From the IMG/VR virus record IMGVR_UViG_3300033143_002710: a DNA stretch of 64,000 bases; one strand, given 5' to 3'. This document shows positions 6,034 to 62,229 of this stretch, one piece after another (position 1 is the stretch's first letter; every line of letters starts with the position of its first letter). The notes under the pieces are model-generated. The model was not told the DNA's origin. It was given only the letters and a program-made list of their open reading frames with translations, and did no database searches. The translations under genes and the position numbers were made by a program. Source of the stretch: a virus. Its lineage: Duplodnaviria > Heunggongvirae > Uroviricota > Caudoviricetes.

Positions 6034-6036
6034 AAT

Positions 6037-7238: not shown

Positions 7239-7257
7239 ATTTATCCCCTTGTTTTGG

Positions 7258-7331: not shown

Positions 7332-7431
7332 TAAATTTAGCATGTTGGCCTACCAACTCCGGGGTGCGACTCCCGCACAGATCACGCTGTACACGGTTAG
7401 CTTTGCCCAATCGGGCGGCGGCTCTACCTGG

Positions 7432-7504: not shown

Positions 7505-7513
7505 GAAATTTGG

Positions 7514-12203: not shown

Positions 12204-12409
12204 TATTTTCCTTTGGCGGCAGCGAAATAACCCGCTACGTTACTCACGCCATAAATAGTTAATATTGCTGAGATTATATCAACAAACTCTTCGCCGCTAA
12301 CATTCCCCGCAAAAAGAGCGACGTTTGCCATGAATAGAGATGATGCCGTCAGTATAAATTTTCTCGAACTATAGCGACTCTCGGCTGCTGTTTCTAAATT
12401 AGATGGCAC
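12203..12409 (-). CDS. holin-like small membrane protein (two predicted TM helices)
   Basis: 68 aa with two hydrophobic helices (FILTASSLFMANVALFAG; VDIISAILTIYGVSNVAGYFAAA). Its stop overlaps the i-spanin start. Confidence 0.45.
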   Translation of the reverse strand: MPSNLETAAESRYSSRKFILTASSLFMANVALFAGNVSGEEFVDIISAILTIYGVSNVAGYFAAAKGK

Positions 12410-48736: not shown

Positions 48737-48918
48737 TGTCGCTCTTTGATTGTTGCTTCGGATTTCCTTATACTATCAGTCTAATACTTTGCAGGCAAAT
48801 ATCTTGAACACCGTAACGATAATCTACAATCCGGTGGCGGCAAAAATAGTTAGCCCCACGCACCAGGTGGACCTTCATATCCAGCACATTCTGTCGTATA
48901 ACGTATCTGGCGCGGATA
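48737..48918. promoter_or_regulatory. divergent intergenic region between the minus-strand block and the plus-strand early module (expected promoters)
   Basis: 182-bp AT-rich spacer separating oppositely oriented gene blocks. Candidate -10 GATAAT/TATACT elements are present, but no confident -35/-10 pair. Confidence 0.4.
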
Positions 48919-50324
48919 TGAGTGATTCCTATCAGAGCGGTTATTGGGATGGTCGATCTAGTTTTTACGAAATGCGCAAACATAGATTCCCCGCTGGATT
49001 TGTTCCGGCAGTCATAAAGGGTCTTCGTCAATTAGGGTACGAGGTCAACTCTCGTCGAGCCAAAAAGCCAAAACCTCTTGGCCCAGAGCGTCCTATCTTT
49101 GACGAATTTCAGTACAAAGACGAACGCTACGATTTCCAAGCTGAGACCGTTGATCGACTGATAAGACACGGTTCGATGATCGCACAGGTTGCTACTGGTG
49201 GCGGCAAGTCTCGTATCGCTCAGATCGCCACCGCCAGGATACAACGTCCAACGCTTTTTCTAACCACTAGAAAGGTTTTGATGTATCAGATGAGAGGTCA
49301 TTACGTCGACATGCTAAAGTATGACGGTATGCCGAAGCACCATAAAGTAGGTGTGATGGGTGATGGGGAGTGGAGTCCGGAACCCTGGATTAATGTCGGA
49401 ATGACTCAGACACTTATCTCCAGATTAAAACCCGCTGGCGTACTTGATTCCCAAGAGAAGCAGGACGCTCAAGATAAACGAATACGAGAGACTATTGCCT
49501 TGCTCGAGCGGTTCGAGCTTGTCATTCTTGAAGAGGCTCACGAAGCGTCCGGAAACAGTTATTACGATATTATGAAACGATGTAAGAATGCTCACTATCG
49601 ACTCGCACTAACTGCCACCCCTTTCATGAAGGAAGATGAAGAGGGCAATATGAATTTGATGGCATGTGCAGGTGCCATTGGAATAAGGGTTTCTGAAAAG
49701 CAGTTGATCGACTGTGGAATTTTGGCCAGACCGGTTTTCAAATATGTCGTTCCAGAGAAGCCTAAGTTTTTGCTTAGAAACACTTCTTGGCAGGCAGCCT
49801 ATCGTCTCGGGGTCGTAGAGAGTGTTTCCAGAAATGCTTTGATTTTGCAGAACGGAATAAAGTCCTCCAAATATAACCTTCCCACTCTCGTGCTTGTGCA
49901 GCAGCAGAAACATGGAAAGATTCTCGAGGCCGCCTTTCGTAAGAATGGCGTCAGGTGTAAATTTATTTTTGGCCCAAGCAAGACGCATGAGCGCGATCTA
50001 GCTCTAAAGGAATTGGAGTCTGGCGTTATACAGGTCTTGATAGGCTCGAATATTCTGGACGTTGGTGTCGATTGTCCGGCACTTGGCATGGTCATGAATG
50101 CTGCTGGAGGAAAAGCTGAAGTCAATCTTCGCCAGAGAATCGGTCGAGGACTTCGAGCGAAGAAGGTCGGCCCAAACGTCTGCTTCTTTCTTGACTTCAC
50201 CGATATTCATAATAAACATCTTGGAAAGCATAGCGCCGCTCGACGCGGTATAGTCCAGGCTACACCTGGCTTTGCTGAGAATATACTGCTGGATTCACAG
50301 GATTTTCCATATGATTTATTCTAA
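48919..50324 (+). CDS. SF2 DEAH-type DNA helicase
   Basis: Motif I ATGGGKS, motif II LEEAHE, motif III TATP and motif VI QRIGRGLR. The track ORF starts at 48750, but the ATG at 48919 (MSDSYQ) is more plausible. Confidence 0.8.
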
Positions 50325-50354
50325 ACCTCTCTTTTCTAGTGCTATCATGCTGAT

Positions 50355-50576
50355 ATGACCTCGAACGCAGCAGAAAAAACGCCTTTGACTATTTCTTTGG
50401 AAACCAAAACGCTTGGTGTAGTCAAATTTACGGCCTTTTCTAGTATCTCTGACGCTGCGGATTACGCAATCTTACTCATATCATCAGGAGAGGCAATACC
50501 CAAGTCGATCAGGCTTGGTGATGAAGTTGTTATGAGTGAAGCCGATATCAACCTCTATTGGGAATCGTCACTATGA
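50355..50576 (+). CDS. hypothetical protein
   Basis: 73-aa ORF. Confidence 0.4.
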   Translation: MTSNAAEKTPLTISLETKTLGVVKFTAFSSISDAADYAILLISSGEAIPKSIRLGDEVVMSEADINLYWESSL

Positions 50577-50585
50577 TCCCTATTC

Positions 50586-50900
50586 TTGGAAAACGGATTT
50601 ACCAGAGTAGGAGAAATTATGTCTGATTACGATAATCGAGAATTGCTAAAGCTAATGAAGGAGCTTTCCTATCGACACTTCAATGTAGAATGGGAAAACG
50701 GACTCGAGTATATTCTTTGGCATTGGATGCACCATCCCTCTCCATTAACGGTTCATGACGAACACAGGCTTTACATGGCGCACTCTCGTGCTAAGGGATG
50801 GTTTGCGATTCTTGACGAACCCTCAGAAGGAGTTCAGTTTATGACTACCGACAAATGGATCAGACTGTTCCAGGATGAGTTTGATGGGGCGGTGAACTAA
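50586..50900 (+). CDS. hypothetical protein
   Basis: 104-aa ORF. Confidence 0.45.
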   Translation: MENGFTRVGEIMSDYDNRELLKLMKELSYRHFNVEWENGLEYILWHWMHHPSPLTVHDEHRLYMAHSRAKGWFAILDEPSEGVQFMTTDKWIRLFQDEFDGAVN

Positions 50901-50901
50901 T

Positions 50902-51117
50902 GTGGTCGCTGACAGCCCTGATGTATCTTTTGGACCGGATACGTGCAGCATATGTGAATGTGATTTTTCATTTGAAAATGAAGGTGGCGTTTCTGGCTTT
51001 ATTGGTATTATTGGCGTCTCTTTCTGCCCAACATGTCATGCCGGGCTACACGATCTCTATCTCTCGTGGTACGGCGAAGACGACAACGACGAAGTAGGAG
51101 ATAAAAATGGGAACTAA
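50902..51117 (+). CDS. zinc-ribbon protein (CxxC...CxxC)
   Basis: CSICEC ... CPTCH. Preferred over the overlapping frame 50900..51097. Its 3' end contains AGGAG for the next gene. Confidence 0.45.
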   Translation: MVADSPDVSFGPDTCSICECDFSFENEGGVSGFIGIIGVSFCPTCHAGLHDLYLSWYGEDDNDEVGDKNGN

Positions 51118-51499
51118 TTATTACTGGCATGAACAACCAGCGCCGTGCCATGCTTGCGGTCACGATAAGGCCAAGATTCTGCATATAGGCAAATCCAGTA
51201 TGGGATGGGTCTTTATGCTTCGCGTCGATCCAGAAGAGGGTCTGAACACGCTCAGAGACTGGCGAGATCGCTGGACTGAGCCCGGCTCAAAGATTTTGAG
51301 TGAGTACGGAACACTCATACAACCTTCTGGAATGAGCGAAATAATTCTTGATCGCGCAAATATGAGCGCCCCTTGGTCGGTTCAAAAACAAAAAGAAAAC
51401 GGCGCTATACAGGGTCCAAACGGTCTTTATCGTGGATTCCAAAATTTTGCGCCTATTGATGACGCCACCTATGATCTTGTTGATAAGGAATTTTTCTGA
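51107..51499 (+). CDS. hypothetical protein
   Basis: 130 aa with a CHACGH pair near the N-terminus. Confidence 0.5.
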   Translation: MGTNYYWHEQPAPCHACGHDKAKILHIGKSSMGWVFMLRVDPEEGLNTLRDWRDRWTEPGSKILSEYGTLIQPSGMSEIILDRANMSAPWSVQKQKENGAIQGPNGLYRGFQNFAPIDDATYDLVDKEFF

Positions 51500-51501
51500 C
51501 A

Positions 51502-51674
51502 TGAGAACCAAAGAAGAAGTCGAAAGTGTTAGGCTTAAAGTTAATCCATACGAGGGAAGCAAATTTCCAGGAATGACTTATGAAGAAGGTATTGAAGTTG
51601 CTTTGTCTTGGGTTTCAGGCGACACTGAAGACTTTGAGATTGAGGGAGACCCCTATTTTGACCCGGAGTACTGA
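51502..51674 (+). CDS. hypothetical small acidic protein
   Basis: ATG at 51502 directly after the upstream stop. 57 aa. Confidence 0.4.
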
Positions 51675-51675
51675 C

Positions 51676-52176
51676 ATGATAATGAGCATTAAAGGCACTA
51701 ATCTTCTAAAATTGATCGAAGAGTTTCGCGCTTATCCGTATGACGATCAAACGGGTGACGATACTGAAGTCTGGGAGCCAGGTGCCACCATTGGTTACGG
51801 CCATCTGATTAGCAAAGCTGAGTGGCCCAATTTTTGCGGCAGGCGTATCAGCACTTTTGAAGCTGATCGTATATTTGCAAAAGACCTGTTCCCTTTTGAA
51901 CTTTGCGTTAAGGATGCAATCGAAAGCTCTTTCAAGCTATTCAAAAACGAATACGACGCTTTGGTTATGCTCGCCTTCAACATCGGGAGAAGTGGCTTTG
52001 CAAGTTCGTCGGTCGTAAAGCTGATCAACGATGAACATGCGGAGACGAGTTACGACAGTTTAGAGCAGGCATGGATGGCCTGGAACAAGTCGCAGGGCAA
52101 AGTCATGCGCGGACTGATCAATCGAAGAAATGCCGAATGGCAGATATATTCCAACGGGATTTATGAACGCTGGTAA
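51676..52176 (+). CDS. endolysin, GH24 phage lysozyme (T4L/lambda R-like fold)
   Basis: EEFRAYPYDDQTGDDTEVWEPGATIGYGH has the catalytic E...D...T pattern. The C-terminus GLINRRNAEWQIY is typical of this family. Confidence 0.85.
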   Translation: MIMSIKGTNLLKLIEEFRAYPYDDQTGDDTEVWEPGATIGYGHLISKAEWPNFCGRRISTFEADRIFAKDLFPFELCVKDAIESSFKLFKNEYDALVMLAFNIGRSGFASSSVVKLINDEHAETSYDSLEQAWMAWNKSQGKVMRGLINRRNAEWQIYSNGIYERW

Positions 52177-52246
52177 GCTGCTATAATGAACACACACGTA
52201 TTCCAGTGCCATATGACGCACGATCACTAAACAAGAGGGCGGATCG

Positions 52247-52744
52247 ATGGAAGCACAGCAAACACCACTCAGAACGGCAATCATGCGCATAATGAGCGAC
52301 ATGCTTGATAATCCCTGCGAACACGGTCTGTATGATACCGGACGGTTCATGGATCGCATCGAACAACTTCTGTGCGACATGATGGCCGCACCAGAGGTTA
52401 TGCAGTTGTCTGGTTCCGAAGCAGTCTTTGGATTGCTTGCCTGGTTGACAACGAGAGACGAAACTACCGTTCTCGGTCCTCATCAGCAGGTTGACGTTAG
52501 TATTGCTACTCAATTTGTAGAGGCTAATCGTCTTGCCGAACCACGAGAGGCTTGGCATGAGTTACTGACTCACCCTAAAACTGAAGTGCCGGAAATTGCC
52601 AGTCTGTCTAGCGAAGTGGATTTTGATATCGGTAAGCCCGAATGCGGTTCTCTTCGTGCCACCTTGTTTGATTTGAACGGTAAGGTTGTCGTCACCGGTT
52701 CGCTAGAAGAAGTTATTGGCGTTCTCACGGAGAAAAAGGGGTGA
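52247..52744 (+). CDS. hypothetical protein
   Basis: 165-aa ORF. Confidence 0.5.
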   Translation: MEAQQTPLRTAIMRIMSDMLDNPCEHGLYDTGRFMDRIEQLLCDMMAAPEVMQLSGSEAVFGLLAWLTTRDETTVLGPHQQVDVSIATQFVEANRLAEPREAWHELLTHPKTEVPEIASLSSEVDFDIGKPECGSLRATLFDLNGKVVVTGSLEEVIGVLTEKKG

Positions 52745-53034
52745 TGCTTACTCTAACTCAAATTGCTACATCACTTACCGCCGTTGGCATTATCGGTGGT
52801 GGCGCTCTTACGCTCGACAGAATGCATGTTGCAACGGAAGACTTCAAAGAATACATTGAGGTGCAGCAGCAATCTGACGAAAGGGACTACGTTCTCACAC
52901 TCAAAAAGGACATTCGAGAAATCAAACTCGCGATAGCGTCGAACCCAAGTGAGGTCTATCTCATTAACGCTTTGGCCGATTCTTTGGATGATCTTTGTGA
53001 ACTTCGCCCAGACGACAGACTTTGTGAGGAATAA
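52741..53034 (+). CDS. single-TM membrane protein (possible holin/antiholin-like)
   Basis: N-terminal TM LTQIATSLTAVGIIGGGALTL followed by a charged helical region. Confidence 0.4.
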   Translation: MMLTLTQIATSLTAVGIIGGGALTLDRMHVATEDFKEYIEVQQQSDERDYVLTLKKDIREIKLAIASNPSEVYLINALADSLDDLCELRPDDRLCEE

Positions 53035-53037
53035 CCA

Positions 53038-53421
53038 ATGACGCCAGATCGTTACGATACTTTTGTGTCCGACTGTTGGATGGGCGGCGTACAACCTTTG
53101 AAAGAACAGGTTGCTGTAACCGCTCTTGGACTGGCTGGCGAATCTGCCGAGGTCATGGAAAAGGTTTTGTCTGCCGCATCAGCGTGTCTGGCTGCCGGAA
53201 ACCATGCCGAGCGAATCAAGAAGGTCACTCGCGGAGACGATCCGAAACTAAGTCATAATGTCAATGTAGGCAAAGAGCTTGGTGATATTTTGTTTTACGT
53301 ATCGAACCAGGCTCGCTTACACGGCATGACTCTTCAGGATATCATGCTGCTGAATTACGATAAGTTGTCTGGTCGGATCGAGCGTCTCGGAACTTTACGA
53401 GGTGACGGGGACAATCGATAA
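53038..53421 (+). CDS. mazG: MazG-like nucleotide pyrophosphohydrolase
   Basis: Segments GLAGESAEVMEKV and ELGDILFYV...LQDIMLLNYDKL, typical of all-alpha NTP pyrophosphatases. Confidence 0.75.
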   Translation: MTPDRYDTFVSDCWMGGVQPLKEQVAVTALGLAGESAEVMEKVLSAASACLAAGNHAERIKKVTRGDDPKLSHNVNVGKELGDILFYVSNQARLHGMTLQDIMLLNYDKLSGRIERLGTLRGDGDNR

Positions 53422-53470
53422 GGCGATCTCACTTCTACTATAATCACATTACGAAATTCAATTACGAGGG

Positions 53471-53686
53471 GTGGTCATGGGAAAGAATACGGCAAGAATC
53501 GACAACTGGTTTATAGTTGGCAATTGTCTTTGGGGCAATGTGACCGAACACAGCGTTCGACAGTTTGACCCTGACAATCTTCAGCGAACGTCCGATATCG
53601 TCAGAATTGATGAAGAGGCTGGAATTGCTGAAACTCTCAACACTCACTACACGCTCGGAAATAAACAAGAGGAACCTTTCTCATGA
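53471..53686 (+). CDS. hypothetical protein
   Basis: 71-aa ORF. Confidence 0.4.
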   Translation: MVMGKNTARIDNWFIVGNCLWGNVTEHSVRQFDPDNLQRTSDIVRIDEEAGIAETLNTHYTLGNKQEEPFS

Positions 53687-54003
53687 GAGACATTATCTTA
53701 CGCGCTGTCGAAGTAGCCAAAGGCTGGCAGTTCATACCAAGTCATTCGTTCGTCAAGATTCCTGGTCTCACCGAACCTGCCGATGTGATGCGAATCGAAT
53801 CCGTCATAATGAATGGTTTGGCGGCTCAACTCGTTTTGCAAATTGACGAGTCGGATAACTACGCCTTTCACTCAAACGATGACGGGCGATGTACCGTCAC
53901 CAATAGCGATCCGAAGAAGGATCAGCCGGAACTGTCTTCGCATCACGGAGAGTCTCGCGCTGTTAATACTCTTCATGCTATGGCTCGCGCAGGATTCATC
54001 TAA
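53683..54003 (+). CDS. hypothetical protein
   Basis: 106-aa ORF with AAGAGGAA RBS. Confidence 0.5.
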   Translation: MRDIILRAVEVAKGWQFIPSHSFVKIPGLTEPADVMRIESVIMNGLAAQLVLQIDESDNYAFHSNDDGRCTVTNSDPKKDQPELSSHHGESRAVNTLHAMARAGFI

Positions 54004-54582
54004 GTGGAAAAATCGGATTCAAAACGCGAGCGCATGGAAGAGGGCGCTCTGCTAATCACCGGCTGTCCAAGAAGCGCCACTCGATCTGTCACTAAGTATT
54101 TTGAGGATCATGGTGTAAGTCTTGGCCATGAAACTGCTGGCGAAAAGGGCACCGTTGATTGGCGACACGCTTACACGATAATGGACACGAAAAACCCGGC
54201 TTTCATTATTCAGATGACTCTCATTCGAAATCCTATCGACACTATTCGATCACTCGCGGAATTACTTACACACTGTGATCGCAGAAGTGAAACCTGGGAT
54301 TGGATACGGGCTCTTTCTACGCTTGGTAGTTGGGATGAGAAGCTGAATAATCTAGATTTTTTTGGTGCCGCCACAGACTGGTGGATAACCGTCTATGATC
54401 GTTTGATTGACTTTCCCGTATTAAAAATGGAGCATCTGCCGAAACTTCCACAGACGAATCGTCATGGGCGAATTGATCGAGGATTTGATGTCGGCGGGTT
54501 ACTTAAGGGCAATGAAGAGCTTTGGCGAGTGGCAGAAATGTACGGTTATAACCAAGAGGATTATCTCGGAGACAGTCAATGA
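54004..54582 (+). CDS. sulfotransferase-like protein (Stf0-type, PAPS-binding motifs)
   Basis: 5'-PSB-like LITGCPRSATRS and 3'-PB-like LIRNPIDTIRS. An alternative start lies at 54034. Confidence 0.55.
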   Translation: MEKSDSKRERMEEGALLITGCPRSATRSVTKYFEDHGVSLGHETAGEKGTVDWRHAYTIMDTKNPAFIIQMTLIRNPIDTIRSLAELLTHCDRRSETWDWIRALSTLGSWDEKLNNLDFFGAATDWWITVYDRLIDFPVLKMEHLPKLPQTNRHGRIDRGFDVGGLLKGNEELWRVAEMYGYNQEDYLGDSQ

Positions 54583-54956
54583 CTGACACGATCTACAGAG
54601 TTAAGATTAGGAGATACCATCTCTGTCCAATCGAAAAGTTGGAAGTTGTAAGGAGAACCGCAAAAACGGTTACTGTTATTCTCAAAGACTTCTGGCACAA
54701 AGGTAAAAACTGCGAAAGCAGATATTCATTGGAAAGCCAAGACTATCTATTTTTCGACACGCTAAAAGAAGCTGAAAATGTCGCTGAAAATATCATTACC
54801 AATCGTATGCAGGAGTCTATAACTGAAACAGAAGAATTGCGTGAACGACTCCAGGAAATATGTAAGCATGTGGCTATCAACAGTCCGTCTGATGGCAGGT
54901 GCTGTCGATGTGATTTTCGAGTGACCAATCCAGAGGATTATTGCAATGGTGGATAG
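54579..54956 (+). CDS. hypothetical protein
   Basis: 125-aa ORF. Confidence 0.45.
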   Translation: MTDTIYRVKIRRYHLCPIEKLEVVRRTAKTVTVILKDFWHKGKNCESRYSLESQDYLFFDTLKEAENVAENIITNRMQESITETEELRERLQEICKHVAINSPSDGRCCRCDFRVTNPEDYCNGG

Positions 54957-55219
54957 CTGTGAATCTCACTAACAGAAAAGGCTACTGGTTCAAATTGTTT
55001 GTTGCGTTGAGTATTTTGGTCAATGCAATATTTGGCGGTCAAATGTATGAGTCTGCTTGTGCAAAGGCGTGGCGAATGAGACATTACGGTGGATTTCGCG
55101 GACTGTGGGCTGTTATAACTATTTGGCTAATGAACTTTTTTGAAAGGGATCATTGCAGAAAAAGCGAAATTGCATACAAGAGAATTCAATCTGGACTAAA
55201 CAAGGGCAGAATCGAATGA
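54941..55219 (+). CDS. small membrane protein
   Basis: Two hydrophobic helices. Confidence 0.4.
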   Translation: MQWWIAVNLTNRKGYWFKLFVALSILVNAIFGGQMYESACAKAWRMRHYGGFRGLWAVITIWLMNFFERDHCRKSEIAYKRIQSGLNKGRIE

Positions 55220-56427
55220 TATATCATAAGGGTGAAAGAGTTCACGCGAAAATTTGGACAAACCAGGTCGAAGAGTCGGCTATGAAGCAGATCGATGATC
55301 TCTGTGGTCTGCCGTTTATTCACAAACATATAGCGGTCATGCCAGACGTTCATGCTGGTTATGGCTCGACCGTTGGCTCTGTAATCCCAACCAGAGGAGC
55401 TATCATTCCTTCTGCCGTTGGTGTCGACATTGGATGCGGAATGATGGCTATTCAGCTTGATCTTAATGCGGCCCAACTTCCGGACAGTTTGTTGGATGCC
55501 AGACTTTCTATTGAAGCCAGTGTTCCTCATGGTCGCTCCGCAAATGGAGGGCCAGGTGACAAAGGCGCTTGGGATAATTTACCGACTGATGTTGGGGATT
55601 TGTGGCGAGCCGAATTGTACGACGGTCTTATGGATATCTCTGAGCGTCATCCAAAAATTCTTAAAGGCCATGTCAACACGCATAGACATCTTGGAACTCT
55701 TGGTACGGGCAATCATTTCATCGAAGTGTGTCTTGACGAGACGGACGCCGTTTGGGTGATGCTGCACTCAGGCTCTCGTGGAATTGGAAATCGAATTGGC
55801 CAGTATTTTATCAATCTCGCCAAAGAGGATATGAGAAAGTGGTTTATCAATCTTCCAGAAAAAGACCTGTCTTATTTTCCAGAAGGCACCGATCACTTTG
55901 ATGATTATTGGAAGGCTGTATCTTGGGCGCAAGAATACGCCTCTATGAATCGTGAAATTATGATGGCTAGGACTCTCGTCGCTCTTCGTCATTCGCTGGG
56001 TTTAGGAATACACATTCAAAAGAAGGCTGTGAACTGTCATCACAACTACGTCGCGCTGGAAAATCACTTTGGTGCCAATGTATACGTTACACGCAAAGGC
56101 GCTGTTAGAGCGCGTGTGGGTGACTTGGGGATCATTCCGGGAAGCATGGGTACGCGATCATACATAGTCGAGGGACTTGGCAACAAAGATTCGTTCAATT
56201 CCTGCTCTCACGGCGCTGGTCGAATCATGAGTCGCACAAAGGCTCGAAAGATATTCACCGTTGATGATTTGGAAAAGCAGACAATTGGTGTAGAATGTAG
56301 GAAGGACTCTGATGTGATTGATGAAATCCCAGGTTCCTACAAGGACATCGACGAAGTGATGGCAAATCAGGCTGATCTCGTTAAGCCGATCCACACTCTT
56401 CGTCAGATTGTTTGTGTGAAAGGATAA
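55216..56427 (+). CDS. rtcB: RtcB RNA ligase
   Basis: MPDVHAGYG, GVDIGCGM, GTGNHFIE, HSGSRGIGN, CHHNYV and HGAGR motifs. Likely start is the ATG at 55216. Confidence 0.95.
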   Translation: MIYHKGERVHAKIWTNQVEESAMKQIDDLCGLPFIHKHIAVMPDVHAGYGSTVGSVIPTRGAIIPSAVGVDIGCGMMAIQLDLNAAQLPDSLLDARLSIEASVPHGRSANGGPGDKGAWDNLPTDVGDLWRAELYDGLMDISERHPKILKGHVNTHRHLGTLGTGNHFIEVCLDETDAVWVMLHSGSRGIGNRIGQYFINLAKEDMRKWFINLPEKDLSYFPEGTDHFDDYWKAVSWAQEYASMNREIMMARTLVALRHSLGLGIHIQKKAVNCHHNYVALENHFGANVYVTRKGAVRARVGDLGIIPGSMGTRSYIVEGLGNKDSFNSCSHGAGRIMSRTKARKIFTVDDLEKQTIGVECRKDSDVIDEIPGSYKDIDEVMANQADLVKPIHTLRQIVCVKG

Positions 56428-56502
56428 TGGCGAGTAGCTCAATGGTAGAGTGCCTGACTGTTAATCAGGGGGTTGTAGGTTCGAGTCCTACCTTGCCAGC
56501 CA
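56428..56502 (+). tRNA. tRNA-Asn (anticodon GTT), CCA encoded
   Basis: TGGCGAG TA GCTC AATGGTA GAGT G CCTGA CTGTTAA TCAGG GGGTT GTAGG TTCGAGT CCTAC CTTGCCA G CCA. Starts on the nucleotide after the rtcB stop. Confidence 0.85.
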
Positions 56503-56507
56503 GTATT

Positions 56508-56584
56508 CGGAGTGTGGCGCAGTCTGGTAGCGCACTTGCTTTGGGAGCATGGGGCCGTAGGTTCAAATCCTACCATTCCGACCA
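56508..56584 (+). tRNA. tRNA-Pro (anticodon TGG), CCA encoded
   Basis: CGGAGTG TG GCGC AGTCTGGTA GCGC A CTTGC TTTGGGA GCATG GGGCC GTAGG TTCAAAT CCTAC CATTCCG A CCA. One T-T mismatch in the anticodon stem. Confidence 0.75.
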
Positions 56585-56599
56585 ATTTGAGTCATTGAT

Positions 56600-57166
56600 A
56601 TGCAAGCCTTAGACTGGATCAATGACATTATGCGCTGGTTCGGCCAGTTTATTCCAGAGTGGGACTTGCTCGATCCGACAGAGGGCGGAGTAAAGTTCAA
56701 ACCTGGCGGTAAGATAGTCTTGCTGAAACCCGGCCATATTTATTGGTTCTGGCCTATTACGACCAATGTTTACACGATTGAGACTAAACGGCAGCCGCTA
56801 GTTATATCTCAGCGACTGACAACGGCTGATGACATTTCTGTATTGGTCGAAACCGTCATCGTATATGTGATTGATGATGTTGAGAAGGCTATCGTCGAAA
56901 CACGCGATCATGAAGATACTATTTCAGAGATCGGCGAGAAGGTCACTGTTAAGCCCGTCATGAGTAGAACTTTTGAGAATATTCGAATTGACATTGCCGA
57001 TTCGAACAAACTCAACAATGAAATCAAGTCCGGCGCTCGTTCTGAGTTGGGTGCTTACGGAGTCAAAGTTGTAGACGGTTACATATCCAGCTTTGCAGAA
57101 ACAAAAGTATTCAGCCATGACGGGTCGGGCATGGTTATAGAGGAAGACGAATATGAAGAAGAGTAA
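56600..57166 (+). CDS. SPFH (band-7/stomatin/prohibitin)-like domain protein
   Basis: The core VKFKPGGKIVLLKPGHIYWFWPITTNVYTIETKRQPLVISQRLTTADDISVLVETVIVY matches the SPFH pattern. Acidic C-terminus. Confidence 0.55.
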   Translation: MQALDWINDIMRWFGQFIPEWDLLDPTEGGVKFKPGGKIVLLKPGHIYWFWPITTNVYTIETKRQPLVISQRLTTADDISVLVETVIVYVIDDVEKAIVETRDHEDTISEIGEKVTVKPVMSRTFENIRIDIADSNKLNNEIKSGARSELGAYGVKVVDGYISSFAETKVFSHDGSGMVIEEDEYEEE

Positions 57167-57497
57167 GCCTTTTTTCACCATTGGTTTGATGATAATTCTA
57201 GGTCTGTCAATCGCAGCTACAGAGGTGTATGGCGAAGAATACTGTTATGTCCCGTATGGCGTAGGCGTCCATCCAGAGTTCGTTGCTGGAACCTCACTGG
57301 TGAAGGTGAATTGGATAGAGGGCGAGCGCGGGATGGAGGCTCAGGCTTCCTACATGTACGACGAGGAAACCAACTCCACAATATGTGTGATAACGGTTCG
57401 TATGCCCGATCAGGTTATTGGCGATCCGGATATGGATTCGTTAGGTCATGAGCTTTTACATTGCTTGACCGGTGACTTTCACGAAGGGGAACACTGA
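57153..57497 (+). CDS. small secreted protein with HExxH motif
   Basis: Signal peptide MKKSKPFFTIGLMIILGLSIAA and a C-terminal HELLHCLTGDFHEGEH. Confidence 0.45.
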   Translation: MKKSKPFFTIGLMIILGLSIAATEVYGEEYCYVPYGVGVHPEFVAGTSLVKVNWIEGERGMEAQASYMYDEETNSTICVITVRMPDQVIGDPDMDSLGHELLHCLTGDFHEGEH

Positions 57498-57748
57498 TGA
57501 AACCTGTTAAATTCCCAGAGGCTAATCGTGAACTTACGAGACCTGATGGAATGACGGAAGAAGAATGTTCGTCGTTATTTGTTTGGTCGGACGATGAACG
57601 CTGTTTAAGTCTTTGGAGACCCACCTGGCGCGAACGATTGAGATTTCTTTTTTACGGAGAGCTATGGCTTTTTGTTTTATCCGGCGATACACAACCGCCA
57701 GTGTCTTTACAGTTTCACTACCCTTTTAAGGTGAAAAATAATGGCTAA
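57497..57748 (+). CDS. hypothetical protein
   Basis: 83-aa ORF. The stop/start reads ATGA. Confidence 0.4.
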   Translation: MKPVKFPEANRELTRPDGMTEEECSSLFVWSDDERCLSLWRPTWRERLRFLFYGELWLFVLSGDTQPPVSLQFHYPFKVKNNG

Positions 57749-57944
57749 GGTTCGATTCGAAATGGAAGTTGAGGTCATGCGACTCTACACGGTGCCTATT
57801 ATGGCAGAAGATTTAGAGGGTGCAATCGTACAGGCCAAGAAGATAAACACGACTGTTCAAATAGAGGCTTTGGGTGAGCCTCAGGATCACGAGATCAATT
57901 TGGTGGGCATCTCACGCCAGGTCGGTCGGAAGATGTACCAATGA
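57741..57944 (+). CDS. hypothetical protein
   Basis: 67-aa ORF. Confidence 0.4.
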   Translation: MAKVRFEMEVEVMRLYTVPIMAEDLEGAIVQAKKINTTVQIEALGEPQDHEINLVGISRQVGRKMYQ

Positions 57945-58255
57945 AAATGGCGGCCGTTCTTCTGTCTTTATTTTTGGTCGTAGGATGCGCCAGCGAAAAA
58001 GTCAGACCTTTTGGGTCACTTGGTCTCGGATATCAAGCTGAAGGCTCGACGGATCATGTTTTACAGCGTGATCGTGAATGGCAGTGCAAAAGATGGCAGC
58101 AAGCCTGGATCGAAATAGGGGCAGAATTTAGAAACGGATGCTCAATTTCGCTGCTGCACCAATCATGGTATTTATGTGGATCGCCGTTCAATGAGCGACC
58201 AGAAGTTGACATGAATACCTTTGTTGGCAAATGCAAGATTGGAGGGTTCAAATAA
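57941..58255 (+). CDS. lipoprotein (possible superinfection-exclusion type)
   Basis: Lipobox LFLVVGC after a signal peptide. Confidence 0.5.
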   Translation: MKMAAVLLSLFLVVGCASEKVRPFGSLGLGYQAEGSTDHVLQRDREWQCKRWQQAWIEIGAEFRNGCSISLLHQSWYLCGSPFNERPEVDMNTFVGKCKIGGFK

Positions 58256-58262
58256 TAGTCTC

Positions 58263-58700
58263 ATGCCAATAGCCAATTACACAACTTCGATTAAAACCGA
58301 AAAAACTGTTGGTGAAATACAGAAGATGCTTGCTACCGCAGGAGCGGCACAAGTGCTATTTGATTTCGACGGGCCGAATGTATCAGCAATTTCATTTCGT
58401 TTGCTTTACAATGGCACGATGGTCTCTTTTAGACTACCTGCAAATGTTGATAATATTTACGTGGTGCTTCAGCGCGACGACGGTGTTCCTCGCAAACTGA
58501 AAACTACGGAGCAAGCTACTCGAGTAGCCTGGCGAATCATCAAAGACTGGCTACGGGCGCAACTTGCTATCGTTGAAGCAGAACAAGCTGAGATGATCGA
58601 AGTGTTTTTGCCTTACGCTCAGAATCCAACCACTGGTCAAACCTTATTTCGTGAATTTGAACAAGTCGGCTTTAAGTTGCTGGCAGCACCCGATTCGTAA
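58263..58700 (+). CDS. hypothetical protein
   Basis: ATG at 58263 (MPIANY...). Confidence 0.45.
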   Translation: MPIANYTTSIKTEKTVGEIQKMLATAGAAQVLFDFDGPNVSAISFRLLYNGTMVSFRLPANVDNIYVVLQRDDGVPRKLKTTEQATRVAWRIIKDWLRAQLAIVEAEQAEMIEVFLPYAQNPTTGQTLFREFEQVGFKLLAAPDS

Positions 58701-58712
58701 GAGGAGAGAAAA

Positions 58713-59300
58713 ATGAAGTCGTACATGAAAGCTCTATATATCGCCAGTTGGATTCCCGTTGTCCTGCTGCACACGTTCCCACTTGTAATGTTGTGGCCGT
58801 TCTTCGATCTGTCAGTGTGGCAGGCGTTCCTTCCTATTGGACTTATGCCGCTTGGTCTTGTCATGGTTCCGTTCGCACTGTCTCGCGATAGCTGGCCGAA
58901 ATATCTTTGGCTCTGGTGTAATGACGAAGAGGGCTGTCCTGATTGGTGGCTTAACGTTGCGGATGGTAAAGGTGGTTTCATTGGCAAGTTTCCGCGTTTT
59001 TGGTGGTACGCCGTGCGAAACCCGGTCAATAACTTTCGATTTATATTCAAGGATCGCACAGCAGAACTCGATACCAACTGGTTCGACCCTAAACCTATGG
59101 AAGCCGCAAATTTGCTGGAAGCTGGCCAAGCTATGGCGTATCGATGGGCATACGCTGGCCCGTTCGCTGGCTATCGTCAGGTCTGGCTCAACAGCAGCGA
59201 CAAGTATTCTGAATTCTGGATCGGCTGGAAAGTGAGTTCGATTGTTTCAGGTCTGGGATTCACGTTCCAGTATCGTCGCAAAAGGCAGATCGGTCAGTGA
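58713..59300 (+). CDS. Trp-rich integral membrane protein
   Basis: Two N-terminal TM helices and a W-rich body. Confidence 0.5.
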   Translation: MKSYMKALYIASWIPVVLLHTFPLVMLWPFFDLSVWQAFLPIGLMPLGLVMVPFALSRDSWPKYLWLWCNDEEGCPDWWLNVADGKGGFIGKFPRFWWYAVRNPVNNFRFIFKDRTAELDTNWFDPKPMEAANLLEAGQAMAYRWAYAGPFAGYRQVWLNSSDKYSEFWIGWKVSSIVSGLGFTFQYRRKRQIGQ

Positions 59301-59302
59301 TA

Positions 59303-59437
59303 ATGTCCATCATTGGTCATCTGCTTGCGGTCTTGGTAATCTACGTTATCGGCTATGCCATTGGGTGGGCACATGCATTCAGTTACTCGGATCATCTGAG
59401 CAATTTGCGCGATCCAGAGGCTGGTGATCGGTGGTGA
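59303..59437 (+). CDS. small membrane protein (44 aa, below the track size cut-off)
   Basis: Manual translation MSIIGHLLAVLVIYVIGYAIGWAHAFSYSDHLSNLRDPEAGDRW. Confidence 0.35.
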   Translation: MSIIGHLLAVLVIYVIGYAIGWAHAFSYSDHLSNLRDPEAGDRW

Positions 59438-59814
59438 CTACAACGCTCGAGGGCCTTTTGAGAATGACCGTTCCAATCGGCCCTGGTTGTGTTGCGCCTG
59501 AAGACACTCAGATGACACCCGACTTTCGTATTGCTGTCCAGGAAATTGATAGTGGAGGGGTGCGGGTCATCATTCACTCTTCTGGCCACGATAGCGACAC
59601 GCTGGACTTTATTGTCATTGGCAATAAACTGTTGACCCTGGAGCAGCACGAACGTAGGAAAATACTCATAGAGAGCAGGGTCATTTTGCAAAGCGCCCTG
59701 TCGATTGCTTCTCGAGAAGGCAAAGACACCAATTGGTCTGCTTTCGGGAATCGATTGAGAGTAACCTTGGAATCTCAAAGTAAACAGTTAAAGGAGATAT
59801 TGCCAGATGGCTAG
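59431..59814 (+). CDS. hypothetical protein
   Basis: 127-aa ORF, preferred over the antisense ORF 59392..59778. Confidence 0.45.
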   Translation: MVTTTLEGLLRMTVPIGPGCVAPEDTQMTPDFRIAVQEIDSGGVRVIIHSSGHDSDTLDFIVIGNKLLTLEQHERRKILIESRVILQSALSIASREGKDTNWSAFGNRLRVTLESQSKQLKEILPDG

Positions 59815-60010
59815 ATCATTCGAACTTGACGACGAGGCTCATGCTTTGGCGGAGCGATTCATAGTCGATCACACCTGCTCTGTTGATTATGCCGGGGCCA
59901 TTGGTGGTAAAATCTCCTATGAATTCACAGAAACAAGTATGGGCCTTATAACCGAGGTAAAATGCAGTTGTGGTGATAGCCAGAACTTGACGGATTACGG
60001 TCAATGGTAG
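59807..60010 (+). CDS. hypothetical small Cys-containing protein
   Basis: 67-aa ORF. Confidence 0.4.
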   Translation: MARSFELDDEAHALAERFIVDHTCSVDYAGAIGGKISYEFTETSMGLITEVKCSCGDSQNLTDYGQW

Positions 60011-60426
60011 ACTCAATGAAAATCGTCATGGAGTTCCCGCCCAACATTGAGGACATACGAAAAGTTCTCCCGTTGAAGGGTGGTGAAATCTTTGCTTGGA
60101 ATGACACAATCTACAGCCCCATGACCTCTAAATTACCACCGTGGATGATCGTACATGAAGAGGTCCATCGAAAGCAACAGGCTGGAAATCCCGAAGGCTG
60201 GTGGGCCAAATATCTGATAGACCCAGCGTTTCGCTTTGAGCAGGAACTGGAAGCGCATCAGGCGGAGTATTTAGCCTTTTGTTCGATAGAGACTGATCGT
60301 AATCGTAAGCGGGTATTTCTGAAAGGAATTGCACGAAGACTGTCGGCACCAATGTACGGTCGAGTAGCGTCTTTTGAAAAATCCAAAAGACTCATCAAAA
60401 AACCCAAAAAAGGACCAGCATCATGA
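60004..60426 (+). CDS. hypothetical protein with HEEVH motif (possible zincin-like)
   Basis: WMIVHEEVHRKQ. The motif alone is weak evidence. Confidence 0.45.
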   Translation: MVDSMKIVMEFPPNIEDIRKVLPLKGGEIFAWNDTIYSPMTSKLPPWMIVHEEVHRKQQAGNPEGWWAKYLIDPAFRFEQELEAHQAEYLAFCSIETDRNRKRVFLKGIARRLSAPMYGRVASFEKSKRLIKKPKKGPAS

Positions 60427-60668
60427 AAAAGAGTAAACGTAATTTCACCGAGAAAAGCATCCCCGAAGGTATAACTGCCTGGTATCATCACATTCGAGAT
60501 AAAAATCGAGTCATCTTCGAAACCACCTGTGATCTGATCGACAGTGTTTCCGGCGAAACCCTGGTAACAGGTCATGCTCGAGTGTCACCCAGAGATAACC
60601 CTTCCAAAAAGATCGGTCGAGCAATCTCTCTTGGTAGGGCGCTCAAACTGTATCACCTGGGGAACTGA
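60423..60668 (+). CDS. hypothetical basic protein
   Basis: 81-aa ORF. Confidence 0.4.
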   Translation: MKKSKRNFTEKSIPEGITAWYHHIRDKNRVIFETTCDLIDSVSGETLVTGHARVSPRDNPSKKIGRAISLGRALKLYHLGN

Positions 60669-60669
60669 C

Positions 60670-60822
60670 ATGAGCAACACGGTTGTTTGTTTATTGGTGT
60701 TGGTACTTCTGATTCGGCTCGACACAGCTTACATCAAGGAAGATGGCCCCGCTGCATGGTGGGTTTTCTCGTTTGCTCTGTTAATTGCGGTGATTACGGA
60801 TTTATTCAGGATGGCTATATGA
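60670..60822 (+). CDS. small two-TM membrane protein
   Basis: ATG at 60670. MSNTVVCLLVLVLLIRL...WWVFSFALLIAVITDLF. Confidence 0.4.
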   Translation: MSNTVVCLLVLVLLIRLDTAYIKEDGPAAWWVFSFALLIAVITDLFRMAI

Positions 60823-61058
60823 GCAAATTCATCAAATTCAGCAGACCCAGGAAGTCGAAAAGCAAAAAGACTCAAATATGGCGGGTGCTAACCAACGACG
60901 ACAGTCTGCTAGGTGAGATTCGCTGGTTTAGTCGCTGGCGCAGATACGCTTTCCATCCTGACGTTTACACGGTGTTCGAGCATGACTGTCTGCGAAAGAT
61001 TGCAGACTTCTGTGAGGACGAATCAAAGAAACTTCGCAAGACTTGGAGAAAAAAGTAA
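60819..61058 (+). CDS. hypothetical basic protein
   Basis: ATGA overlap with the preceding gene. MSKFIKFSRPRKSKSKK... Confidence 0.45.
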   Translation: MSKFIKFSRPRKSKSKKTQIWRVLTNDDSLLGEIRWFSRWRRYAFHPDVYTVFEHDCLRKIADFCEDESKKLRKTWRKK

Positions 61059-61279
61059 TGGACGAAAACGAACGAATGCTCGTACAAACAATGTCGGCAG
61101 TATCCCATCTCATCGAATTCCTTGATACGGGAGAACCCGTCGACCTGGCCACCGCCTTTGCAATGTTGAAAACCCCGGACATGACCAAATGGCTGGAATT
61201 CAATTCAGTGATGTTACCGCTTCGCCGCGATAGAAAGTCTTTGCTCAAGCGGCTGGCTGAAAGCAATAGTGTCGAATGA
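61043..61279 (+). CDS. hypothetical protein
   Basis: 78-aa ORF. Confidence 0.4.
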   Translation: MEKKVMDENERMLVQTMSAVSHLIEFLDTGEPVDLATAFAMLKTPDMTKWLEFNSVMLPLRRDRKSLLKRLAESNSVE

Positions 61280-61464
61280 ATAATCGAATAATTGAACAGG
61301 GCGTTAAAAATCTAAAGGAATTCGGCTATCCAGGTGTGAACGCTGATAATATTCTAACCGACATGATCTATAGCGAATTCTTCAGGTCAATGTTGAAAGA
61401 CAATCTCGGCCACTCAGCTAAGGTGGATATAGATATCAATGAGATTCTGGCGGCGTTGCCGTAG
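61276..61464 (+). CDS. hypothetical protein
   Basis: 62-aa ORF. Confidence 0.4.
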   Translation: MNNRIIEQGVKNLKEFGYPGVNADNILTDMIYSEFFRSMLKDNLGHSAKVDIDINEILAALP

Positions 61465-61479
61465 CGTCCGGAAGTATAA

Positions 61480-62229
61480 GTGCTTGGCGAACGTGTAATT
61501 TCCTGGTTTTCCTGTGGCGCAGCCAGTGCGGTAGCATCCAAACTCGCCATACAAGAATATGACGCCGTTGAAGTGATCTATCAGGAGACTCACTCGGAAC
61601 ACCCAGACAACGAACGATTTCTGGTCGATTGTGAACAATGGTTCAAACAGCCTATTATTCGACTGGCATCTGATCGTTATCATGATATCTGGGATGTATT
61701 CGAAAGGCGTCGATATCTTTCAGGCACTAATGGCGCTCTTTGCACTTCCGAACTCAAACGCATGGTTGCCGAGAAATACATCAGACACGGCATAGACCTC
61801 GAGATATTTGGCTATACGGTTGAGGAGCGAGATCGAGTCATTCGTTTTTGCAAAAACAACCCAGAAAGACGAATACGTGCCGTTCTTCTGGAACGAGGTT
61901 TAACCAAAGAAGACTGTCTTGGAATAGTCAATAAGGCAAATATTGAAATCCCCGTCATGTATAGGCTGGGCTATAATCACAATAATTGCATAGGATGCGT
62001 AAAAGCGGGATTCGGTTACTGGAACAAAATCAGAGTAGATTTCCCCGACACGTTTGATCGTATGGCCAGGTTGGAGCGCAAACTGAATATGGCCATCTGT
62101 AAATCTGACAGAAAGGGTGACAAGAGCAAGCCTGTATTTCTAGATGAACTAGACCCCAATAGAGGGCATCATCCTACAGAGCCAAAGATAAGCTGCGGCA
62201 TCATGTGTGAGTCAGAATTCGTTGAGTAG
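61480..62229 (+). CDS. PAPS reductase-family (PP-loop ATP pyrophosphatase, CysH/DndC-like) protein
   Basis: N-terminal PP-loop variant ISWFSCGAASAV and downstream CIGC. GTG start. Confidence 0.65.
   Translation: MLGERVISWFSCGAASAVASKLAIQEYDAVEVIYQETHSEHPDNERFLVDCEQWFKQPIIRLASDRYHDIWDVFERRRYLSGTNGALCTSELKRMVAEKYIRHGIDLEIFGYTVEERDRVIRFCKNNPERRIRAVLLERGLTKEDCLGIVNKANIEIPVMYRLGYNHNNCIGCVKAGFGYWNKIRVDFPDTFDRMARLERKLNMAICKSDRKGDKSKPVFLDELDPNRGHHPTEPKISCGIMCESEFVE

Follow-up and report, generated by a model that had tools for sequence, protein, structure and literature searches.

In a reaction that depends on GTP and Mn2+, RtcB joins RNA 3' ends that carry a phosphate or a 2',3'-cyclic phosphate to 5'-OH ends. 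tRNA-cleaving defences (PARIS, retrons, HEPN proteins, bacterial Schlafens and Cas13) are a major current theme of phage-host research, viral tRNAs are proven countermeasures to such defence, and phage RtcB together with tRNAs has already been proposed as a guard against host defences that cut tRNA (PMC3203893, 2011; PMC7824862, 2021; PMC5648845). The phage RtcB-like ligases concerned, those of Cluster K1 and M mycobacteriophages, Sphingobium phage Lacusarx, Proteus phage Privateer and jumbo phages, belong to the same family as the one described here, co-occur with or lie near tRNA genes, and have a proposed role in tRNA repair (PMC3203893, PMC5648845, PMC7881722, PMC7824862). RtcB homologues are encoded in 710 phage records of INPHARED; our literature search turned up no experiment on a phage RtcB. 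A cyanobacterial precedent also exists: under translational stress Anabaena co-regulates rtcB with an array of tRNA genes. There rtcB does not adjoin the array, but in other cyanobacteria it is found in the neighbourhood of such arrays (PMC8421152).

An rtcB gene abutted by two tRNA genes

The locus lies on the + strand of the 64,000-nucleotide stretch of viral DNA analysed here (the window). Its rtcB gene (55216..56427), for a 403-aa RNA 3'-phosphate/5'-OH ligase, ends in a TAA codon at 56425-56427, and T56428 is already position 1 of a tRNA-Asn(GUU) gene (56428..56502; ARAGORN Asn(gtt)), which a 5-nt spacer, GTATT (56503..56507), separates from a tRNA-Pro(UGG) gene (56508..56584; ARAGORN Pro(tgg)). 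The initial annotation had described this zero spacer, the 5-nt gap and the CCA encoded in both tRNA genes, and ARAGORN with direct reading of the sequence bears it out to the base, the genes ending ...CTTGCCA-G-CCA (Asn) and ...CATTCCG-A-CCA (Pro). Fifteen nucleotides past tRNA-Pro comes the ATG of an SPFH/Band_7 gene (56600..57166, +), the conserved 3' neighbour that rtcB has in this phage family whether tRNAs intervene or not. Upstream, the TGA of a 92-aa ORF without family match (54941..55219, +) overlaps the rtcB ATG (55216-55218) as ATGA, so that the two may be translationally coupled. We took this ATG, rather than the TTG at 55153, as the rtcB start because homologues are 402-406 aa long and a JGI metagenome protein (P0001) is identical to the 403-aa product. 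Where known RtcB phages have a large tRNA array, this locus has two tRNAs only, and the distance from stop codon to tRNA, 0 nt here, is ~1 kb in Privateer and is given as the 'same region' in Lacusarx.

An intact ligase under purifying selection

The product is a full-length RtcB, matching Pfam PF01139 over profile positions 1-426 of 426 (E 1.2e-126; 423.9 bits against a cut-off of 27) as well as PHROG 1075 (E 1.2e-147). We looked for mutated His or Cys ligands and found the metal-binding and GMP-histidine residues all kept, in agreement with the initial annotation: D65, H67, D95, C98, N202, H203, H234, H329 and the guanylylated H404 are in place in a HMMER alignment to P. horikoshii RtcB (1uc2/4dwq). 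With its catalytic residues complete the protein is predicted to be a functional ligase, and comparison with relatives shows purifying selection on its gene (dN/dS 0.11-0.15, dS 0.84-0.91).

Two bacterial types were considered and rejected. The PrfH-coupled RtcB2 ribosome-repair subtype would be recognized by TIGR03073, for which the protein, at 127.8 bits, falls short of the 271.8-bit cut-off, and no prfH lies nearby, the rtcB neighbours being the 92-aa ORF and the SPFH gene. For the rtcBA-rtcR operon type, the RtcA cyclase and RtcR activator were not found among the flanking ORFs scanned; nor did the window proteins scanned include an RtcA, archease, Pnkp or other repair partner.

Two canonical tRNAs

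Under the Rfam tRNA model (RF00005; gathering threshold 29 bits), tRNA-Asn scores 71.7 bits and tRNA-Pro 63.6. Isoacceptor identity depends on G34-U35-U36 and G73 for Asn, and on G35-G36, A73 and C1-G72, with G37, for Pro. These elements can be read directly in both genes: tRNA-Asn has U1-A72, the discriminator G73 and the canonical anticodon loop CUGUUAA, and tRNA-Pro has C1-G72, A73, G37 and the canonical loop UUUGGGA. Both are valid tRNA genes, predicted to be functional.

The tRNA-Pro gene is mosaic and host-like in its centre, its D-arm and anticodon arm matching Burkholderiales tRNA-Pro and the anticodon arm being identical to Burkholderiales chromosomal copies; recombination inside tRNA genes thus does occur here. 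Escape variants of the T5 type, with anticodon-loop or stem substitutions, were rejected on the identity of this arm and the canonical Asn loop, with the proviso that the reference tRNAs may not be those of the host. A search of isolate phages for near-identical DNA matched tRNA-Pro alone (87%, Xanthomonas phage XacN1). The portal protein is ~50% identical to those of SSU5-like, Pseudomonas 'hairong' and Rhizobium phages, the lineage itself being uncultivated; to assign a host, 185,579 species genomes were scanned with the portal protein for prophage or plasmid relatives, without a match.

Transcription of the locus

Genes are densely packed throughout 48750-62229, with gaps of at most 80 nt, no + strand terminator-like site was found from 54907 to 57949, and rtcB and the tRNAs lie too close together for a promoter or terminator to fit between them. 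From this we infer that ligase and tRNAs are co-transcribed, a reasonable step already taken in the initial annotation. Signal matches are at chance level across 47.5-64 kb, with 22 promoter-like matches against a shuffled expectation of 22.2 and 12 terminator-like against 14.1. Since the total equals the shuffled expectation, no weight was given to two 9/12 promoter-like matches, one inside rtcB (56269-56296) and one that might have served as a dedicated tRNA promoter (56400-56428); in the latter the -10 box overlaps the rtcB stop codon, so that transcription would begin within the tRNA. The best match of the region, sigma-70-like (TCGATA-18-TATAAT, 10/12; 53415..53444, +) and in a 49-nt gap past the MazG gene, is an unproven candidate promoter for the transcript carrying rtcB and the tRNAs.

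In such a transcript, rtcB, tRNA-Asn-GUU and tRNA-Pro-UGG would be parts of one long + strand polycistron. If standard tRNA processing applies, RNase P would cut exactly past the rtcB stop codon and 3' trimming would halt at the encoded CCA, freeing both tRNAs. The anatomy is as first described, but the proposed unit is not a discrete operon: the tRNAs sit between rtcB and the conserved SPFH gene.

Other tRNA genes and codon usage

The zero spacer is not a signature specific to rtcB but a habit of this genome. On the - strand of the window the dnaB helicase gene (7586-8902; TAA at 7588-7586) abuts, again with no spacer, a tRNA-like gene with a deviant anticodon loop (7585-7511), past which lie tRNA-Thr(UGU) (7504-7429) and tRNA-Ile(GAU) (7331-7255). 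A 7-nt gap separates the gene for an ATP-dependent DNA ligase (1954-3327, -) from the tRNA downstream of it (1946-1869, -), whose anticodon is UAU (Ile, AUA) and whose anticodon stem is bulged. Splicing of the two odd tRNAs (7511-7585 and 1869-1946) by RtcB was considered and rejected: they have no intron-like insert, only a 1-nt deviation in loop length and the bulged stem.

The phage, at 47% GC, uses codons in a way that fits its tRNA set of Pro(UGG), Thr(UGU), Ile(UAU)-like and Asn(GUU): 45% of its Pro codons are CCA, 32% of its Thr codons ACA, 30% of its Ile codons AUA and 54% of its Asn codons AAU. The heavy use of CCA, ACA and AUA puts codon supplementation on an equal footing with counter-defence as an explanation for the tRNAs. 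One could go further and hold that in a compact genome rich in A/U-ending codons the tRNAs were dropped into a permissive junction, their rtcB neighbour being without functional meaning in this genome. We regard this fuller account as possible though on the unlikely side. Apart from the codon shares, it accords with the placing of tRNAs, singly or in small groups, directly past the unrelated dnaB and DNA ligase genes. Should the 60-70% GC Burkholderiales that share the Pro anticodon arm be the host group, CCA, ACA and AUA would be rare there by a crude estimate, a comparison that is only indicative, as Burkholderiales may not be the host.

A junction kept in diverged relatives

Three metagenomic relatives (L085, L094 and L095), with RtcBs 82-84% identical to that of the window at a dS of ~0.9, have the identical zero-spacer order of rtcB, tRNA-Asn, tRNA-Pro and Band_7, kept despite the rtcB stop codon differing among the four (TAA vs TGA). 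Their tRNA-Asn is 88-97% identical to the same-place copy in the window; tRNA-Pro has kept its position, with only 70-73% sequence identity. Retention of the junction over such a distance argues against a meaningless neighbourhood. The rtcB/SPFH junction is nonetheless variable among close relatives, as codon supplementation at a permissive site would have it: in L088-91 the tRNAs are absent and the rtcB stop codon overlaps the SPFH start, and in L086, also without tRNAs, a 96-aa ORF fills the junction. L087 has an RNA_ligase (PF09414) gene, thus a second ligase, two genes 3' of rtcB. The four isolate phages with the closest RtcBs (PHB04, pf16, Ea35-70 and Cp1R7A-A1) have no tRNA beside rtcB, so the adjacency is not universal.

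tRNA genes beside rtcB across viral lineages

Adjacency was assessed in 75 dereplicated viral RtcB lineages, by comparing the immediate 300-nt flanks of rtcB with other flank bins. tRNA genes occupied 21 of the 146 immediate flanks and 26 of the 2368 other bins, same-strand tRNAs being ~15 times commoner in the 300 nt next to rtcB than in the rest of the flanks (odds ratio 15, range 15-19; P = 9e-15, with lineages treated as independent though they are not). Among the first 53 lineages analysed, all adjacent tRNAs were on the rtcB strand. The rtcB-tRNA linkage is therefore non-random across phages, and with the junction kept in the three diverged relatives it shows that the layout in the window is more than chance. 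So sharp an enrichment in unrelated contexts is not expected from random placement, and it counts against codon supplementation as a full account.

About three-quarters of the sampled lineages have no adjacent tRNA, and this suits the idea that RtcB reseals something else, namely rRNA or mRNA cut by MazF-type RNases or by the collateral RNases of type III/VI CRISPR, or that it damps the host Rtc stress response, with the tRNAs as unrelated passengers. Bacterial RtcB has been linked to rRNA and ribosome repair (PMC9304027, PMC7790460). The RtcB studied here is not of the PrfH-coupled subtype, however, and the enrichment itself points to tRNA biology; we consider a non-tRNA substrate the least probable of the explanations weighed.

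Where an adjacent tRNA is present it is tRNA-Pro in 13 of 18 lineages, and the RtcBs beside a tRNA-Pro are spread over at least five sequence groups. These tRNA-Pro(UGG) copies mostly carry A37, where the canonical base is G37, and are diverse, at 52-73% identity to that of the window. One reading of this preference, which we think improbable, is that rtcB and tRNA-Pro(UGG) are the two parts of a specific module, kept or repeatedly reassembled in many unrelated phages, whose usually-A37 tRNA would evade attack on host tRNA-Pro by a metal-independent nuclease or by a modification-dependent agent while RtcB reseals the cuts; the phage studied here would then have exchanged the middle of its tRNA-Pro for a host-like one with G37.

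Mobility might also create the linkage, if tRNAs were recombination anchors or integration sites and rtcB travelled as a tRNA-flanked cassette that has no need of them. tRNAs do occur on both sides of rtcB (Lys/Lys in L044, Lys/Glu in L012, Gln-Pro/Arg in L022) and, depending on the locus, upstream or downstream of it; the genes around rtcB are unrelated from locus to locus, the first 80 viral loci having shown no synteny of protein genes with the window; a 76%-identical RtcB in a bacterial MAG lies in an integrase element beside tRNA-Met; and the mosaic tRNA-Pro with its host-like centre fits as well. The diversity of the adjacent tRNA-Pro genes, however, argues against one recently spread cassette, we saw neither repeats nor an integrase beside the rtcB of the window, and the preference for Pro is left unexplained. 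We hold mobility to be a poor prospect, on a par with the two-part module.

Proposed role and comparison with known systems

In the explanation that we favour, the locus helps a ~108-kb tailed phage with a long tape-measure tail to maintain translation, as an auxiliary segment in which one transcript provides both an RtcB that reseals cut tRNAs and tRNAs that maintain decoding; we rate the chances of this whole being right as about even. The RNA to be resealed would most plausibly be tRNA anticodon loops with 2',3'-cyclic-phosphate/5'-OH ends, broken by metal-independent ribonucleases (HEPN, colicin E5/D-like or MazF-like enzymes) that either the host or a competing element encodes. The tRNAs would sustain decoding of heavily used phage codons or substitute for depleted host tRNAs. 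Tight linkage could have arisen by insertion of the tRNA pair into a once-overlapping rtcB/SPFH junction, where it was then retained, and rtcB does recur in the company of tRNAs, tRNA-Pro above all, across phages. The counter-defence unit for tRNA repair or replacement first suggested for this locus gains from the intact enzyme and the non-random linkage, whereas the canonical anticodon loops and a codon usage that fits plain supplementation weigh against it, as do the tRNAs placed just behind dnaB and DNA ligase, the rtcB genes that lack tRNAs in close relatives, isolate phages and most sampled lineages, and the absence of a repair partner from the window proteins scanned.

Not all nucleases suggested as targets suit RtcB. 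The initial annotation named retrons; the nuclease of Retron-Eco7, PtuB, belongs to the metal-dependent HNH type, and its products would be unsuitable for joining by RtcB. Nor should PARIS have been listed: its AriB (Toprim) leaves 3'-OH/5'-P ends (PMC12409363), which RtcB cannot join since it needs a 3'-phosphate or 2',3'-cyclic phosphate and a 5'-OH. The T5-type viral tRNAs that neutralise PARIS AriB and Retron-Eco7 PtuAB carry escape substitutions, and tRNA-Asn of the window has none; AriB cuts tRNA-Lys between C and A41 of U36-A-A-U-C-A41, and tRNA-Asn retains that same sequence. Replacement by these tRNAs would thus need to work by dosage, if anything.

The T4 Pnkp/Rnl1 system against PrrC follows a common logic, in that a phage ligase restores a tRNA cut in the anticodon loop with 2',3'-cyclic-P/5'-OH ends, and T4 too encodes tRNAs (PMC10264068). 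It differs in that the RtcB described here is predicted to seal 3'-P/5'-OH ends directly with GTP, without kinase-phosphatase healing, in that the RtcB fold is unrelated to ATP-grasp/Rnl ligases, and in that T4 has a cognate nuclease, PrrC, where this locus has nuclease candidates only. Bacterial rtcBA-rtcR operons share the ligase family, but the window, in its viral context, is without RtcA and RtcR. The cyanobacterial tRNA L-array and rtcB regulon share a regulatory signal, whereas the genes of the window would be fused in one transcript. By itself the window adds another example to an existing hypothesis, without a new mechanism; across lineages, the 15-fold excess of same-strand tRNAs beside rtcB, mostly A37 tRNA-Pro(UGG), is a concrete and falsifiable lead on the purpose of the ligase. 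As the pairing recurs in many phages and the guard role has been proposed before, we regard the locus as a clean new example of recurring phage rtcB-tRNA pairing rather than a new kind of system and, together with the three relatives that share its junction, as an unusually clean minimal construct of one ligase and two tRNAs in ~1.4 kb.

The rtcB gene and the adjoining tRNAs

The rtcB reading frame runs on the + strand from an ATG at 55216, overlapping the TGA of an upstream 92-aa ORF (ATGA), to a TAA at 56425-56427. The encoded RtcB is complete, matching the full 426-position profile of Pfam PF01139 (E 1.2e-126) as well as PHROG 1075, 'tRNA splicing ligase' (E 1.2e-147). The initial annotation had judged the motifs intact, and this held: aligned with HMMER to the sequence of the P. 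horikoshii crystal structure, the protein keeps D65, H67, D95, C98, N202, H203, H234, H329 and H404 (P. horikoshii numbering), the full set of residues for binding the two metals or carrying GMP. An identical protein is present in a JGI metagenome, where its contig measures at most 107,600 nt. The window enzyme does not belong to the PrfH-coupled RtcB subtype, which counts against another possible reading, that its substrate is something other than tRNA.

Position 1 of tRNA-Asn(GUU) (56428-56502, + strand) is T56428, the base after the rtcB stop codon; a 5-nt spacer, GTATT, separates it from tRNA-Pro(UGG) (56508-56584, + strand), both tRNAs encode CCA, and the SPFH/Band_7 gene starts 15 nt past tRNA-Pro. 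The 0-nt and 5-nt spacings first reported, and the two CCA ends, thus proved accurate to the base. Rfam scores are 71.7 bits for tRNA-Asn and 63.6 bits for tRNA-Pro (gathering score 29), and the established identity elements are found in each: U1-A72 and G73 for tRNA-Asn; C1-G72, A73, G35-G36 and G37 for tRNA-Pro.

A near-identical variable-loop/T-arm stretch, GGTTGTAGGTTCGAnnCCTAC, and a 5' TGG start are common to tRNA-Asn, tRNA-Ile(GAU) (7255-7331, - strand) and an odd tRNA-like gene (7511-7585, - strand), which suggests that duplications in the phage lineage gave rise to them. The window tRNA-Pro appears to be a mosaic: its acceptor and T arms are like those of sibling phages (L085, L094, L095 and L099-L103 were compared), while its D-arm and anticodon arm equal, except for one D-loop base, the chromosomal tRNA-Pro(UGG) of Burkholderiales/Rhizobacter genomes of 60-70% GC. 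This pattern suggests that a host tRNA was the donor in a gene conversion that brought in the host-like center and would thereby have turned A37 into G37, and it hints at a Burkholderiales host.

Genomic setting and transcription

The window is a portion of a tailed-phage genome organized in two blocks. The - strand block (~1.9-48.7 kb) encodes DNA ligase, primase, DnaB, a 2462-aa J-like central tail fiber, tape-measure protein, portal and large terminase; the + strand block, from 48750, encodes helicase, endolysin, MazG, RtcB, the SPFH protein and PAPS reductase. The portal is only ~50% identical to portals of SSU5-like phage-plasmids, Pseudomonas phage hairong and ~110-kb Rhizobium phages, and no isolate phage had DNA in common with the window. 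Other products include a PAS-domain protein (12399-13016, - strand; Pfam PAS, E 1e-9), a 442-aa metallophosphoesterase (10367-11695, - strand; PHROG 20266) and the PAPS-reductase-like protein (61480-62229, + strand; PHROG 424).

Because + strand genes are densely packed (gaps of at most 80 nt), promoter-like and terminator-like matches are about as frequent as in shuffled sequence (22 vs 22.2 and 12 vs 14.1, respectively), and no + strand terminator-like site lies between 54907 and 57949, we infer by default that one transcript would cover rtcB, both tRNAs and the SPFH gene. The best-scoring promoter-like site (10/12; 53415-53444) falls in the intergenic gap behind MazG.

Such junctions are not peculiar to rtcB. 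The dnaB TAA (7588-7586, - strand) is directly abutted by the tRNA-like gene 7585-7511, followed by tRNA-Thr(UGU) (7429-7504, - strand) and then tRNA-Ile(GAU), and another tRNA (1946-1869, - strand) begins 7 nt past the DNA ligase gene. Placing tRNAs straight behind protein genes is a habit of this phage, and the abutment by itself is therefore poor evidence that the tRNAs are functionally linked to RtcB.

Some of these genes are unusual. In the tRNA-like gene 7511-7585 the acceptor, D and T arms are well formed and CCA is encoded; the anticodon arm is 2 nt short, folding either with a loop of 6 nt (UUGUAC) or with an 8-nt loop on 4 bp of stem. ARAGORN gives this gene an 'anticodon' of 2 bases, and its Rfam score is under gathering. 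Candidate identities are a tRNA in decay that may once have been Tyr-GUA-like, a signal for processing, and a decoy. ARAGORN read the anticodon of tRNA 1869-1946 (Rfam 57.5 bits) as the 4-base 'tata'; folded by hand, it has a normal CUUAUAA loop (anticodon UAU, Ile/AUA) and one bulged U in the anticodon stem. The 97-nt non-coding spacer between tRNA-Thr and tRNA-Ile (7332-7428, - strand) is unusually long for so tightly packed a genome.

History of the junction

Nearer RtcB homologues from metagenomes were traced to their contigs. In three relatives (L085, L094 and L095, with RtcB 84%, 83% and 82% identical to that of the window) the rtcB stop is followed at 0 nt by tRNA-Asn and then tRNA-Pro, leading to the SPFH gene in L094 and L095 and, in L085, to an ORF cut off by the contig end before it could be identified. 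The junction is kept despite a TGA stop in place of TAA. Relative to the window, dS is 0.84-0.91 in these three, rtcB dN/dS is 0.11-0.15 and tRNA-Asn identity is 88-97%, so both rtcB and tRNA-Asn are under constraint and the junction is old. Other relatives have no tRNA here: L086 (RtcB 81%) has a 96-aa ORF and then SPFH, and in L088-91 (71%) the stop codon of rtcB and the start codon of SPFH share bases (TAATG). The simplest history would be insertion of the tRNA pair into a formerly overlapping rtcB/SPFH junction, which would account for the absent spacer. L092/93 (75%), of a different neighborhood, have tRNA-Pro(UGG) 8 nt past rtcB.

The 101-kb viral-like contig L087 has a 76%-identical RtcB and, two genes downstream (5786-6442), a second RNA ligase (PF09414). 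In L096-L098 a 76%-identical RtcB lies within an integrase-98 aa-RtcB element, which adjoins tRNA-Met in the MAG copies L097 and L098 and is followed in L096 by MazE and Fic genes.

Recurrence of rtcB-tRNA adjacency among viruses

Two scans of IMG/VR yielded 137 usable viral loci, representing 75 RtcB lineages at 80% identity. A tRNA was present in 21 of the 146 immediate 300-nt rtcB flanks and in 26 of 2368 other 300-nt bins out to 6 kb, odds ratio 15, Fisher p 9e-15 (first scan alone: odds ratio 19, p 8e-14), the lineages not being statistically independent in either test; a several-fold excess remains after allowing for a gene boundary in only about half of the distant bins. Adjacency is thus recurrent and not universal, occurring in a minority of lineages (18 of 75) and absent from the four isolate phages with the closest RtcBs. 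tRNA-Pro was included in 13 of the 18 (12 UGG), making up 13 of 30 adjacent tRNAs vs 3 of 33 distant ones (p 0.003). RtcBs with adjacent tRNA-Pro fall into at least five sequence groups, the surveyed tRNA-Pro genes are only 52-73% identical to the window copy, and the protein genes neighboring rtcB are unrelated to those of the window (first 80 loci). Either side of rtcB, or both, may carry the tRNAs; the first scan, which recorded strand, had every adjacent tRNA on the rtcB strand.

A37 occurs in 15 of 18 tRNA-Pro copies within 300 nt of rtcB (loci L006-L138, plus L085, L092, L094 and L095), the exceptions being the window, L006 and L032; G37 was canonical in the bacterial copies compared, and several rtcB-adjacent phage copies have loops CUUGGAA or UUUGGAA. 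Among L044, L012/L054, L021/L022, L004 and L069, rtcB is embedded in short arrays of tRNA genes (Lys|rtcB|Lys, Lys|rtcB|Glu, Gln-Pro|rtcB|Arg), and a Pro/Gln/Arg trio recurs on either side in varying order.

tRNA genes may instead serve as recombination anchors that carry rtcB about, as would fit the loci flanked on both sides, the integrase-RtcB element beside tRNA-Met in a MAG and the mosaic window tRNA-Pro.

Possible function and target nucleases

RtcB joins 3'-phosphate or 2',3'-cyclic-phosphate ends to 5'-OH ends, such as are made by the metal-independent RNases PrrC/RloC, other HEPN enzymes, colicins E5 and D, and MazF; it cannot seal 3'-OH/5'-P ends. We give an even chance to a scheme in which the segment would be transcribed as a single RNA, RNase P and 3' trimming would free the tRNAs, the RNase P cut giving an rtcB mRNA whose last bases are the stop codon, and RtcB would keep tRNAs whole during infection while the extra tRNAs support decoding.

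The initial annotation had proposed a tRNA repair or replacement unit against ribotoxins, and had included retron and PARIS-type tRNases among its targets. The anatomy, the intact RtcB and the recurrent adjacency speak for such a unit; the abutment, not being specific to rtcB, does not, and those two target classes do not fit. Retron-Eco7 employs the nuclease PtuB. PtuB, a metal-dependent HNH enzyme, would leave 3'-OH/5'-P ends. Likewise, PARIS AriB, a Toprim enzyme, leaves 3'-OH/5'-P ends (PMC12409363). The window tRNA-Asn keeps U36-A-A-U-C|A41, the exact context cut by AriB in E. coli tRNA-Lys, without escape substitutions, so any effect on a PARIS-like system would be by dosage, independent of RtcB. 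In tRNA-Thr(UGU), G39 replaces U39, the position mutated in the resistant tRNA-Lys of T5.

As to why the tRNAs exist, codon supplementation is a serious alternative. The commonest Pro and Thr codons of the phage are CCA (45%) and ACA (32%), AUA makes up 30% of Ile and AAU 54% of Asn codons, and this usage matches the phage tRNA set; the Burkholderiales-like tRNA-Pro arms weakly hint that the host is GC-rich and seldom uses these codons.

Relation to known phage RtcB systems

An RtcB homologue is encoded in 710 phage records; the literature searched yielded no experiment that put a phage RtcB to the test. Pope et al. (2011) proposed that mycobacteriophage RtcB, confined to a subcluster that also has tRNA, protects against host tRNA cleavage (PMC3203893), and Iyer et al. 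(2021) described RtcB and Rnl ligases as supplements to the tRNAs of jumbo phages (PMC7824862). What may be new are the quantitative enrichment of tRNAs beside rtcB, the dominance of tRNA-Pro(UGG), mostly with A37, and the mosaic, host-like tRNA-Pro of the window, all of them leads and not demonstrated biology. In Lacusarx, rtcB lies within the tRNA region (PMC5648845), in Anabaena it is co-regulated with a tRNA array (PMC8421152), and in Privateer three tRNAs lie ~1 kb from rtcB (PMC7881722), whereas the spacing in the window is 0 nt; the locus is a very compact case, in an uncultivated phage lineage, of the already noted phage RtcB-tRNA association.
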